DNA of 32,000 nucleotides from Microcystis aeruginosa NIES-2549 (GCF_000981785.2 NZ_CP011304.1:1860001-1892000), one strand, 5' to 3'. Counted from the first letter of the stretch, positions 25,134 to 27,874 are shown. Notes: generated from the letters alone by a model not told the origin. Numbers and translations are program-made.

Positions 25134-25237
25134 GGAAAACGCTCTATAATCGGAACGTACCACTTCACCAAATCATAACACTTTTGAATCACCGATAATT
25201 CTTTCATTGCCTTAATAAAATTTAACATTAACGCCAT
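25134..25237 (-). pseudogene. avd: first ~35 codons of a DGR accessory variability determinant (Avd-like four-helix-bundle protein), cut by IS1
   Basis: MALMLNFIKAMKELSVIQKCYDLVKWYVPIIERFP matches my recollection of cyanobacterial Avd N-termini (...YDLIKWYVPILNRLPR...). The remaining ALLN* of the track ORF is IS1 terminal sequence. Confidence 0.65.
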
Positions 25238-25240
25238 TTT

Positions 25241-25270
25241 CTCAAAAAAATCGACCCGCCTAAGGGCGGG
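25241..25270 (-). terminator. hairpin plus T-run between the target gene and avd
   Basis: On the minus strand, CCCGCC-CTTA-GGCGGG (25270-25255) is followed by TCGATTTTTTT. Confidence 0.5.
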
Positions 25271-25332
25271 AAAGAAAAGAAAAAAGAAAAAATAGGGAAT
25301 GAGGGTAAAAGGGGAAAAAAAGGGGAAAAGGG

Positions 25333-25764
25333 TTACAGAGTCCTCCCAGCACCGCACACCACCCGAAAACCGAAGAGGTCGTCGTCGTTGACGCGGCGGA
25401 CGCAGTAGTAGCGGAAAGCGGAACGGCAGAGATAAGGAATGCTGAACCAAGAACCGCCCCGCGGAGGAGAACGATTATCATCCCCATTTTCTATCCAAGC
25501 ACTGCCATCCGTCGGCGCACCGTCATAGTTATCGTGCCAAGTATCGGCGCACCATTCCCAGACATTGCCGTGCATATCGTACAGTCCGAAGGCATTGGGG
25601 GGAAAATTGTCCCACGGGAGTCGTTTGTTGTCGATATTCTCCGTTCGGTTCATCGGCGTAGGTTTCGCTAGACCTGTAGTTGGCCAATTCCCCAGTAATG
25701 GTTTCCCCAAAGTAAAACGGGGTGGTGGTTCCAGCACGACAAGCGTACTCCCATTCTGCTTCAC
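25333..25764 (-). CDS. C-terminal part of the caspase/FGE-sulfatase protein, carrying the putative DGR variable region (same gene as 25529-27265, shifted frame)
   Basis: FPPNAFGLYDMHGNVWEWCADTWH is the FGE/C-type-lectin-fold core. The real homology starts near 25600; the upstream part of the track ORF is out of frame. Confidence 0.8.
   Translation of the reverse strand: MKQNGSTLVVLEPPPRFTLGKPLLGNWPTTGLAKPTPMNRTENIDNKRLPWDNFPPNAFGLYDMHGNVWEWCADTWHDNYDGAPTDGSAWIENGDDNRSPPRGGSWFSIPYLCRSAFRYYCVRRVNDDDLFGFRVVCGAGRTL
25372..25446 (-). other. putative DGR variable region (VR) core
   Basis: Codons TTC AGC ATT CCT TAT CTC TGC CGT TCC GCT TTC CGC TAC TAC TGC GTC CGC CGC GTC AAC GAC GAC GAC CTC TTC. 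Nearly all are NNC/NNT, as expected when AAC/AAT template codons are adenine-mutagenised. The flanking invariant RGGSW and GFRVV are typical of FGE-type DGR targets. Confidence 0.65.
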
Positions 25765-27265
25765 TGGGTAGTCGGTATTCCCTTCCCGTTAGTTTCGATA
25801 ATCTCGCGCAGAACTCGATCGCGTGGTCCCAGTTGACTTGTTCCACCGGGCGGCGATCGCTATCGGGACGGTCTTTAAAATGGGCCGGGTTGAGATCAAG
25901 GTCTTTTTCAACTTTTAAGTCGGTAAGGGAGGCGATCGCTTTCCACTGGGCCTGGGTGATGGGGTATTTACCCATAAAGAAGGGTGGGACAGTTACTTCA
26001 TGTTGTGGTCTTTCCTTTCTAAATCCTTCCCAATTAAATTTTTTAACCAGTCTTTCGATTTCCTCGTCTTCTGTTCCCATCGTGAATGTACCCCCCGGGA
26101 TGGCGACCATTTCTAGGGTGATGCCGTTGCCCAAATCTTGGGCGAAATATTGGGACTGCTTCGACTCTTTTTTGATTTGCTCACCCTTCGCATTTACTCC
26201 CACGATCTCAAAGTTAAATACCTTGAGTCCAGTTTCTTGAGAAGGTTTAGGGGTCGATGACCTATTTCCCTCGGCCCCCGTGACGTATTCGCGACCCGTA
26301 GCAGGAATCGAAGACCACGGTCGCCGTCGTTCGATCGCCCTTTGCCGGATCGATTGTGACTGTCTTAGAGCGATGCGCTTGATAGCTTCGATCGCCTCTA
26401 AATCGCCACGAGATGCTCCTAAGACACGAATCCATAACTGTTCAGCTAAGTCAAGGTCGCCCCTATTTTCTGCTAAGGAAGCCTGATATTTTAGGGGTTG
26501 CACGTCCCTAAGCGTGGCAACTTGTTCTAACAAAATAAAATAGAGCTTGTGGGGCGGTTCTGCTTTCAGATAGGGATTCTGTCTCGGTTTCCCATATCTA
26601 GCGTTAGTTTGCTCGACTTGACGGCGCAGATGTTCGTCTAGACGCTCGACCGTAGCACAATTGGCTTCTCCTTGCCGCCGTAATCCTTCCAGCAGCGTAT
26701 GAGTAAATGAGCCTTGTTGTAACTCATCGATCTCCCAAGATTGCTGATTGGCAGTACAGGAATAAAAGGTTATGACTCCCTGATGCTCCTCCTCTCCAAT
26801 GCCCAGACCGCCTCGGCTGTCTTCATCTCGACAGGCATCTAATAATAGTACGACGTTATCGGCCCCAGACCGCCGCAGCCGCTCGGTGACATAATCCACC
26901 GATACAGCCGTTTCTCTTACATTGCCCGGATCACTATCCGGCAGCATCAGATAGTCTTTGTCTTGATAGCGCCTGCCATGACCAGCAAAGAAAAACCAGA
27001 GATTGTCTCCAGACTTAAGCAGGGGAGTCTCGAACTGCTTCTGAAGAAACCGCTTGAGACGACCGTAGGTTGGCTGCGTGGGAATGGGGGGACTAGCAGG
27101 AATGGGTGGAGAATCTTCGGTAAAGAGAAATATCCCACTGCGATCGAATCCTCCCTCCCCTTCACACCAAGCTTTGATCGCTTCCGCGTCTTTCTTGGCG
27201 TATTTCAGTGGCTTGAGGTTGTCATACTCGTTGATGCCGATCGCTATCACCCAGTTTTTAGCCAT
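25529..27265 (-). CDS. caspase (Peptidase_C14)-like domain, linker and N-terminal part of an FGE-sulfatase domain (frameshifted gene)
   Basis: WVIAIGINEY...FFFAGHG...VVLLLDACRD retains the catalytic His and Cys. MVAIPGGTFTMG...RPQHEVTVPPFFMGKYPITQAQW...RLPSEAEWEYACRAG are FGE-sulfatase motifs. The frame is lost in the homopolymer at 25597-25606. Confidence 0.85.
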   Translation of the reverse strand: MAKNWVIAIGINEYDNLKPLKYAKKDAEAIKAWCEGEGGFDRSGIFLFTEDSPPIPASPPIPTQPTYGRLKRFLQKQFETPLLKSGDNLWFFFAGHGRRYQDKDYLMLPDSDPGNVRETAVSVDYVTERLRRSGADNVVLLLDACRDEDSRGGLGIGEEEHQGVITFYSCTANQQSWEIDELQQGSFTHTLLEGLRRQGEANCATVERLDEHLRRQVEQTNARYGKPRQNPYLKAEPPHKLYFILLEQVATLRDVQPLKYQASLAENRGDLDLAEQLWIRVLGASRGDLEAIEAIKRIALRQSQSIRQRAIERRRPWSSIPATGREYVTGAEGNRSSTPKPSQETGLKVFNFEIVGVNAKGEQIKKESKQSQYFAQDLGNGITLEMVAIPGGTFTMGTEDEEIERLVKKFNWEGFRKERPQHEVTVPPFFMGKYPITQAQWKAIASLTDLKVEKDLDLNPAHFKDRPDSDRRPVEQVNWDHAIEFCARLSKLTGREYRLPSEAEWEYACRAGTTTPFYFGETITGELANYRSSETYADEPNGEYRQQTTPVGQFSPQCLRTVRYARQCLGMVRRYLAR

Positions 27266-27635
27266 CTTTTCTCTTGAACTTAAATGTCATCGCTCCTTTC
27301 CCTCCTGCTTTGCCCCCGATCCCAAACAGGCTAACTTGTCCTTCCCCATTAATTTCTACAGACAGTTCCACTTCATCGAGCCGGATTTTAGCGCTTGGAG
27401 GATCGGCTTCATCGAGCATTTCCCGCATCGCTTTGAGAAAGCCCTGCATTTCTAGCTTCAGTTTGGACACATCCACTTGACTTCTTTCGGTGGCCGCAAC
27501 TTCGGGCGATTTTTCCTTTCCTTCAAGCCTTCCCCCGGTATCACGGCTACTTCTAGCGCCGGTGGGCGTTTTTTGAAGATCAGAGTCACCCGTAATAATC
27601 CATATTTTGCTGGGAGTCGCGATATCTTCGGTCAT
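27258..27635 (-). CDS. trypco2-like (trypsin co-occurring domain 2) small protein
   Basis: The C-terminal LDEVELSVEINGEGQVSLFGIGGKAGGKGAMTFKFKRK matches the trypco2 pattern as I recall it. An 8-nt overlap with the caspase gene start indicates coupling. Confidence 0.55.
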   Translation of the reverse strand: MTEDIATPSKIWIITGDSDLQKTPTGARSSRDTGGRLEGKEKSPEVAATERSQVDVSKLKLEMQGFLKAMREMLDEADPPSAKIRLDEVELSVEINGEGQVSLFGIGGKAGGKGAMTFKFKRKDG

Positions 27636-27649
27636 TGTGTTGATTTCCC

Positions 27650-27874
27650 CTAAATGTTATCTCGCTTACCTTTAACCAAACTTTCTAATTCCATTATCTT
27701 TCTCTCAACCTCCGCTATCCTCTGACTCAACGGCACAGTCTCGGCACAGCCCAAGTAAGTAGCGATCGCACTGACAATCACATCCGTTTTGGACGTGCCA
27801 ACCCGCTCGACGTACTGGTTGAGTTCGGCGAGAAGAGATGGGGGAATTCGGACGGCGATTTGTGGTTTGCCCAT
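27650..27874 (-). CDS. ribbon-helix-helix (CopG/Arc-like) DNA-binding protein
   Basis: QIAVRIPPSLLAELNQYVERVGTSKTDVIVSAIATYL is the beta-alpha-alpha RHH pattern. It is the first gene of the operon. Confidence 0.7.
   Translation of the reverse strand: MGKPQIAVRIPPSLLAELNQYVERVGTSKTDVIVSAIATYLGCAETVPLSQRIAEVERKIMELESLVKGKRDNI

Follow-up and report, generated by a model that had tools for sequence, protein, structure and literature searches.

The 32,000-nucleotide stretch of the Microcystis aeruginosa NIES-2549 chromosome analyzed here (NZ_CP011304.1:1860001-1892000; hereafter the window, to whose full length all coordinates refer unless another locus is named) very probably carries the target half of a plasmid-derived Microcystis diversity-generating retroelement (DGR) cassette, represented by four closely packed minus-strand open reading frames (ORFs) at 25134-27874. 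In full, the cassette would comprise an RHH-like gene, a Pepco gene, an orthocaspase gene fused to an FGE/C-type lectin (CLec) domain that contains the variable region (VR), avd, a reverse transcriptase (RT) gene and the template repeat (TR), in that order; in this strain it appears to have been split by a deletion associated with an insertion sequence (IS) of the IS1 family, its sensor frameshifted and its VR frozen. The element is a degraded member of an already published kind, the DGR that hypermutates a caspase-type phage sensor, and not a new system. The reconstruction given in the initial annotation is upheld, with corrections, and none of the findings that it named as refuting was obtained.

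The sister strain NIES-2481 served as a reference. Its chromosome (CP012375.1; locus L001) is 100% identical to window positions 16109-18528 and 19673-32000, and the sole difference in the compared span is an extra 1144-bp IS at 18529-19672 in the window. The 147.5-kb plasmid p1 (CP025929; locus L005) belongs to NIES-2481. Further loci came from the M. aeruginosa FD4 plasmid p1FD4 (L006), Crocosphaera (L012), two Microcystis metagenome-assembled genomes (MAGs; L051 and L052), NIES-98 (L050), M. viridis (L053), CP086723.1 (L049), MAG M131 (L009) and MAG M015S2 (L030), including a NACHT-FGE DGR of Microcystis sp. M015S2 (L043). The metagenome contigs L002-L004 end before the frameshift and VR, and the scan of GTDB representative genomes took in neither NIES-2549 nor NIES-2481.

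Variable region and template repeat

A megablast comparison of the locus with plasmids returned a 133-nt match on p1 of NIES-2481. We identify it as a TR on three grounds: its position 15 nt past the stop codon of an RT fragment of DGR type, its abundance of AAC codons and its location outside any FGE gene. Over the 121-nt core, VR and TR are equal in length, with no indels, and all 22 mismatches (22/22, P=2.5e-16) are located at adenines of the TR, whose core has 33 of them, while all non-adenine positions agree; 21 of the 22 occupy codon positions 1-2. The footprint of adenine mutagenesis that the initial annotation had recognized in the C-terminal codons of the FGE domain is thereby borne out, with no VR/TR difference in the core outside the template adenines. 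The C-terminal stretch is also variable among relatives, as would be expected of a VR: about 65 Microcystis orthologues (75-94% identical) differ at exactly the TR-adenine codons, which lie between the invariant RGGSW, CRSA, RR and GFRVV.

The window VR and the p1 TR have in common a TCC and a 7-codon tail, while the VRs of NIES-98, L051 and M. viridis and the TR of L051 have a TCT and a 6-codon tail. This co-variation at a non-adenine site and in length indicates that the p1 TR is the cognate template of the window VR. Nine nucleotides separate the end of the VR from the target-gene stop codon, and the VR sequence is identical in NIES-2549 and NIES-2481, though the strains differ by one IS insertion. 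Neither a TR nor an RT was found anywhere in the window, in agreement with the initial annotation.

Target gene and frameshift

The orthocaspase part of the target gene matches Peptidase_C14 above the Pfam cut-off (E=1.8e-20, profile positions 3-232 of 233) and retains both the His and the Cys motif (FFAGHG and LLLDACRDE), so that the dyad previously described as intact (AGHG, DACR) is indeed present. The PADLOC caspase model also matched the protein (E=3e-14), and a PDB sequence search with the caspase domain gave no match. The FGE-sulfatase match is divided into a first part (E=1.7e-30, profile positions 4-173 of 255; Pfam) and a second part in a shifted frame (Table 1); after frame repair, the domain matches PvdO (5hha, 3e-45) and the DGR variable protein TvpA (2y3c, 2e-18). 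The proposed fusion of a caspase to an FGE/C-type-lectin-fold domain is thus right as to both domains, but not as a single ORF, because an extra T splits the FGE domain over two frames.

At this site the window reads CAATTTTCCCCCC and six relatives read CAATTTCCCCCC; the one extra T at 25606-25603 places the last ~90 codons, including the VR, out of frame. The same T is present in the NIES-2481 assembly. For NIES-2549, the target gene has a recorded product of 578 aa (P0134), and exact-product look-ups of the 578-aa and 80-aa ORF products gave no match. No other lesion was observed in Pepco, the caspase domain or the downstream reading frame. Programmed +1 frameshifting at UUU-U was considered and set aside for want of support, and the six relatives do not have the extra T. 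The sensor is most likely non-functional.

If the extra base were instead an assembly artefact, the caspase-FGE protein would be an intact sensor of fixed specificity working with Pepco, and only the diversification machinery would have been lost. The site is a homopolymer junction (TTTTCCCCCC), both genomes are PacBio-only (PacBio RS II) assemblies, and the lack of further lesions in Pepco, the caspase domain and the downstream frame also speaks for this explanation. However, the same extra base is found in two independent assemblies at 114-123x coverage, and PacBio errors are usually deletions in long homopolymers, whereas here a short T run has gained a base; we therefore consider an artefact clearly improbable.

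Intact relatives and the fate of avd, RT and TR

The cassette is intact in the MAGs L051 and L052, in the order integrase, 74-aa RHH-like protein, Pepco, caspase-FGE (627 aa), bAvd (PF22296) and 352-aa RT, with the TR downstream of the RT. The cassette protein of these loci occurs on 13 contigs, all mismatches of the own VR/TR pair of L051 are at adenines (17/17), and the order target, avd, RT, TR is common to related cassettes. With this intact cis cassette and the TR beside an RT remnant on p1, a TR and an RT do exist in relatives, as the initial annotation required. Window positions 25134-27926 are 92.7% identical to L051, and the alignment ends at the IS1 junction.

The RT-TR segment of p1 (L005 8908-7868) is 94.5% identical to L051 7694-8731, 89-90% identical to the NACHT-FGE DGR of M015S2 and 75% identical to p1FD4. 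What remains of the p1 RT starts near residue 103, immediately behind a palindromic element, its ~102 N-terminal codons being absent. The same IS1 is present twice on p1, both copies 100% identical, and no avd was found there. Together, the chromosomal stump and the p1 remnant lack ~610 bp of the cassette, corresponding to avd codons 26-117 and RT codons 1-102, and the 3' two-thirds of avd flanked by IS1 that had been predicted was not found. Reciprocal IS1 recombination as the origin of the two DGR fragments was rejected, since it is a different, palindromic element that truncates the p1 RT, and the remainder of avd is absent from p1.

Copies of this palindromic element (GTTGACATCCTCACCGnnnnnnnCGGTGAGGATGTCAAC) were located at window positions 4451-4515, 23659-23724 and 31453-31491 and at L005 8940-8900 on p1. 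The copy at 23659-23724 is just downstream of tnpB, and the one on p1 adjoins the truncated RT. These copies may represent ends of an IS200/IS605 element or a derived miniature element.

The same cassette has decayed independently in other lineages, with different breakpoints, and its head (avd, RT, TR) has been lost in at least four lineages. In NIES-98 and M. viridis, avd codon ~4 is fused to RT residue ~261; avd ends at codon 17 in CP086723.1 and at codon 7 in MAG M131, and the cassette of MAG M015S2 is without avd. The separate NACHT-FGE DGR of M015S2 has an inactivated head as well, its RT being interrupted by a ~120-nt insert at L043 6203-6346 that leaves ORFs of 191 aa and 166 aa.

The initial annotation left open whether the VR is frozen or served in trans. 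That it is still a live remote target would be consistent with the many remote VRs of Microcystis genomes that have the same sequence for initiation of mutagenic homing (IMH), polypyrimidine tract and hairpin, with the perfectly cognate TR on p1 and with the trans diversification reported for other incomplete DGR loci (PMC10907252). We nevertheless regard a live target as very improbable and the frozen state as better supported: the p1 RT is truncated and p1 lacks avd, the target carries a frameshift, NIES-2549 and NIES-2481 share one VR sequence despite the IS insertion that separates them, and no RT cluster of this clade was found on a 4.29-Mb contig among the best 120 RT clusters, which is weak evidence against a second DGR. 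With Avd absent, the RT truncated, the sensor frameshifted and the VR identical in both sister strains, the system is most likely inactive in this strain, and its VR probably preserves the outcome of earlier mutagenic homing in frozen form.

The break in avd

The avd stump is identical at 24 of 24 residues to the start of the annotated Avd of p1FD4 and matches positions 1-21 of 104 of the NCBIfam profile DivGenRetAVD (NF033474), so that the Avd homology claimed for the translation of 25134-25237 is confirmed; the ~35 codons originally counted hold for the first ATG and not for the annotated start (Table 1). Homology of avd to L051 and p1FD4 stops at 25134, and the right inverted repeat of IS1 copy 2 adjoins it at the 25133/25134 boundary, so the gene does end exactly at the terminal repeat, as first described.

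A perfect target duplication of 9 bp, TTGTAGTTA, flanks IS1 copy 1 (5877-6633); copy 2, with flanks ACGAATGGC and GGAAAACGC, has none. On its other side is a truncated SOUL-like gene fragment that is 96.9% identical to p1FD4 (L006 2905-3166), and window 25134-26270 matches L006 8001-9100 (avd/FGE), so that both flanks are collinear with this plasmid. The missing duplication, together with this collinearity, indicates an IS1-associated deletion rather than a simple insertion. A simple insertion of IS1 into avd, with the rest of the DGR just past the IS, has practically no chance of being correct, for although avd homology stops exactly at the terminal repeat, copy 2 lacks the 9-bp duplication, the other flank is the SOUL-like fragment, and the RT, the TR and the avd remainder are nowhere in the window. 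Of the IS-mediated decapitation put forward initially, the IS1 at the junction is retained and plain insertion gives way to deletion.

The segment between IS1 copies 2 and 3 carries a plasmid-type ParA gene and iteron-like repeats, which show its plasmid origin, and window 29623-31454 shares 90% identity with the p1FD4 par region. Judged from the sequence, the simplest reading of the break is an IS1-associated deletion within a plasmid-derived chromosomal segment, now bracketed by IS1 copies 2 and 3. Adjacent deletions mediated by IS1 are classical behaviour of this element in E. coli. As in that case, one junction was kept and non-contiguous DNA was abutted without target duplication; unlike it, the element here is a cyanobacterial IS1 relative, and the mechanism is deduced only from junction structure and the p1FD4 collinearity.

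Copy 2 is itself inactivated, its transposase gene being broken by a ~213-bp insertion (~24714-24933) that resembles a miniature inverted-repeat transposable element, with ends GGGTCTGCTGAA...TTCAGCAAGCCC, TAATTAG flanks and a (GGGGTGT)n run. The nine iteron-like repeats (50-61 nt, core GTAAAACCAGAT) are at 30585-31154, beside the ParA gene (29951-30553) and its small RHH-like partner (29685-30008); together they form a plasmid partition or replication region within the chromosome.

Several points weigh against the reconstruction of a single plasmid-derived cassette that was split and silenced. Plasmid p1 is documented for NIES-2481 and the window is from NIES-2549, and the two DGR fragments may descend from paralogous cassettes and not from one. 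An intact DGR may exist elsewhere on the NIES-2549 and NIES-2481 chromosomes, the search having covered the window, p1 and the best 120 RT clusters. The frameshift is known from the two PacBio-only assemblies, so the extra T could be a consensus error shared by both. Finally, the sensor-caspase-Pepco mechanism considered below is extrapolated from a Streptomyces Avs4-Pepco pair with a serine protease.

Table 1. Features of the DGR target locus and its surroundings, with window coordinates and the evidence for each.
Feature	Position	Strand	Evidence or remarks
3'-truncated SOUL-like gene fragment, other deletion edge	23895-24156	+	SOUL E=1.9e-8
IS1-family element, copy 2	24157-25133	+	NF033558 IS1 transposase E=6e-38; ends GGCGTTGC...GCAACGCC
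avd stump	25134-25237	-	34 codons from first ATG; ~25 from annotated start (MKELSV, 25207)
G+C hairpin CCCGCC-CTTA-GGCGGG	25255-25270	-	6-bp stem, 4-nt loop, then TCGATTTTTTT (T run); terminator-like site and fold
Polypyrimidine tract	25271-25331	-	kept downstream of VRs, not TRs (~40 VR and 5 TR loci compared)
3' end of VR homology, IMH-like	25332-25343	-	three G (25343, 25342, 25336) where TR has T
VR core, 121 nt	25344-25464	-	22 substituted positions between 25373 and 25445
C-terminal third of FGE/CLec domain in shifted frame, including VR and stop codon	25333-25602	-	FGE-sulfatase E=7.7e-23, profile 144-254/255
Frameshift site	25603-25606	-	TTTT; TTT in six relatives (alignment)
Orthocaspase (Peptidase_C14) and N-terminal two-thirds of FGE/CLec domain	25529-27265	-	578-aa ORF, ends out of frame
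Pepco gene, 125 aa, predicted protease-activated beta-barrel pore effector	27258-27635	-	PF24393 E=4.9e-31, full profile 1-112
RHH-like gene, 74 aa, putative small DNA-binding regulator	27650-27874	-	weak profile matches
CopG-antitoxin-like gene, 77 aa	28161-28394	-	conserved cassette-upstream neighbour; weak Pfam matches only (CopG_antitoxin E=0.02)
Plasmid-type ParA gene and iteron-like repeats	29951-31154	-	repeat families; ParA Pfam matches

Sequences downstream of the variable region

The GG/G versus TT/T difference at the 3' boundary of VR homology (Table 1) is also seen in the intact cassette L051 and across the sets of VRs and TRs; the stop codon of the target gene, in the repaired frame, is at 25335-25333. 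The hairpin between the target gene and avd is present as initially described, at 25270-25255, and follows 18 VRs of this family, with loop variants in both orientations (CTTA/TAAG and GCTA/TAGC). It could be either an intrinsic terminator or a DGR target-recognition hairpin.

Downstream of each of the five TRs is a conserved ~110-nt stretch (GTCGGAGTTGGCAGGTGGnAATCTGCCAAGAG...), presumably a structured spacer RNA of the DGR transcript. Rfam gave no match around the TR/spacer regions of p1 and of the NACHT-FGE DGR, nor in window 22000-32000.

Genes upstream of the target gene

The tight packing of the four genes with an 8-nt overlap, noted in the initial annotation, was recovered: the Pepco stop and the caspase-FGE start share 27258-27265, and the gap between the RHH-like gene and Pepco is 14 nt. 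The second gene had been called trypco2-like and is a Pepco gene instead (PF24393, E=4.9e-31), Trypco1 reaching only E=0.055 against its product. Pepco identity is 91-97% in L030, L049 and L051, and a Pepco-domain gene also adjoins a Peptidase_C14 protease gene in Crocosphaera.

As for the proposed RHH regulator, a small gene does exist at that place, and its RHH family is weakly supported: the match to RHH_1 (E=0.031, 14.7 bits) is below the Pfam cut-off of 20.5, with further weak matches to YlcI/YnfO (E=3e-4) and RelB-like (E=0.003) families. The AlphaFold2 monomer has a disordered N-terminus followed by helices at residues 12-25, 29-41 and 49-71 (pLDDT 68). The gene is directly upstream of Pepco in L050-L053, where it is 92% conserved; this identity rules out a first reading, taken from L030 and L049, that it is not conserved. 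No PADLOC model matches Pepco or the RHH-like protein. The 77-aa CopG-antitoxin-like gene has the same position in NIES-98, M. viridis and the NACHT-FGE DGR, and homology of the window to NIES-98 and M. viridis reaches 28533.

The coupling to RHH and trypco2 that was initially held to be unusual is not so, given that the RHH-Pepco-caspase-FGE-avd-RT operon is conserved in Microcystis and that Pepco-protease-FGE modules and orthocaspase-CLec DGR targets have been published (PMC12642450, PMC7517822).

Comparison with known systems

Cyanobacterial DGRs are known to include multidomain CLec/FGE variable proteins, orthocaspase-CLec targets and remote targets (Vallota-Eastman et al. 2020, PMC7517822). 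As in those, the target protein here has an N-terminal orthocaspase and a C-terminal FGE-type CLec domain with a 3' VR, its accessory genes are Avd and RT, and transposases are nearby; degraded cassettes were already noted in that study. Unlike them, the present cassette is split and apparently dead (avd stump, RT remnant on another replicon, frameshifted target), and the TR is downstream of the RT in this clade. The adenine-specific VR/TR differences, the IMH-like 3' boundary and the G+C hairpin past the VR are shared with the prototype DGRs of Bordetella phage BPP-1 (Mtd) and Treponema denticola (TvpA), and the FGE-type CLec fold with TvpA (2y3c, E=2e-18). In contrast to those two, the arrangement runs target, avd, RT, TR, neither a functional RT nor a functional Avd is left, and the hairpin is ~60 nt past the stop codon, after the polypyrimidine tract, and is also terminator-like.

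Pepco beta-barrels become membrane pores after proteolytic trimming, and the proteases paired with them carry fused sensor domains, FGE among them (Evans et al. 2025 preprint, PMC12642450); this activation is known from experiments with SsPepco/SsAvs4 only. The arrangement here is similar in that a small Pepco gene is immediately upstream of, and translationally coupled to, a sensor-fused protease. It differs in that the published protease is the trypsin-like Avs4, which cleaves after Ile97 in the C-terminal tail, whereas here the protease is a caspase homologue and the Pepco domain reaches almost to the C-terminus. DGR-diversified conflict systems have also been described, and some incomplete loci diversify in trans (Dore et al. 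2024, PMC10907252; Kaur et al. 2020, PMC7159879). Those systems likewise link DGR-diversified FGE sensors to effector peptidases and to small proteins acting as adaptors or effectors, are reshaped by mobile elements and include incomplete loci, but the latter still diversify, while our locus gives no sign of ongoing activity.

Proposed mechanism

By analogy with these systems, the FGE/CLec domain would be the DGR-diversified sensor, the caspase the transducer and Pepco the effector. In the intact cassette, as published work on these families suggests, RT and Avd would copy the TR RNA with adenine-specific errors, and the cDNA would replace the VR, so rewriting the ligand-binding face of the FGE/CLec sensor. 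Ligand on the sensor would be expected to activate the fused caspase, which would cleave Pepco to give an active pore in the membrane; death of the infected cell would follow as an abortive defence.

In the lineage of NIES-2549 and NIES-2481, the cassette lies in a plasmid-derived chromosomal segment between two IS1 copies, where an IS1-associated deletion most likely took all of avd past codon ~25 and whatever followed it. Of the lost part, the cognate TR and the 3' two-thirds of the RT appear to survive only on p1 of NIES-2481, cut on the 5' side by the palindromic element, and a 1-nt insertion has probably frameshifted the sensor upstream of the VR as well.

Other features of the window

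The 1144-bp IS at 18529-19672 encodes a 329-aa DDE transposase and splits an alpha-amylase gene, and a 5-bp overlap at its junctions implies a target duplication; its absence from NIES-2481, where the alpha-amylase is intact (614 aa), indicates that it transposed after the strains diverged. Three degenerate 37-nt direct repeats (CTCTCTACTCGCCCTTAGAAATCCGTGAAATCGAAAC), 71-73 nt apart, are found at 22171-22351, just upstream of an IS605-family tnpB (22484-23605), and look like a decayed mini-CRISPR array. A second caspase-like gene (10805-13825, minus strand; 1006 aa) combines an N-terminal caspase-like region with a KAP/QatA-type P-loop NTPase (PADLOC QatA E=3e-22, caspase E=6e-6) and is probably another defence gene. 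Finally, 1407-2346 and 3181-3429 contain tandem DUF29-like gene duplicates (83% identical, 475-nt period) and a duplicated 126-nt ricin-type lectin repeat (96% identity).

Significance

The locus reveals no new mechanism. It illustrates that a DGR target can be recognized without an RT, from the VR footprint, the conserved 3' boundary, the polypyrimidine tract, the hairpin and the avd stump, and the split in NIES-2481, with the target on the chromosome and the TR and RT remnant on a plasmid, is a handy natural substrate for studying homing in trans.

A broader idea, unlikely but worth keeping in view, is that Microcystis DGR heads travel on plasmids and serve chromosomal orphan sensors in trans. 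If this were true, the exact match between the chromosomal VR and the p1 TR would be a record of cross-replicon mutagenic homing, decapitated targets could be re-armed by any incoming plasmid that carried a compatible head, and the repeated loss of heads would represent the turnover of a costly mobile hypermutation service and not simple decay.

For Microcystis itself, whose genome is rich in IS elements, the finding means that DGR cassettes diversifying caspase/Pepco suicide sensors have been repeatedly dismantled, with breakpoints that differ between NIES-2549/NIES-2481, NIES-98/M. viridis, CP086723.1 and MAG M131.

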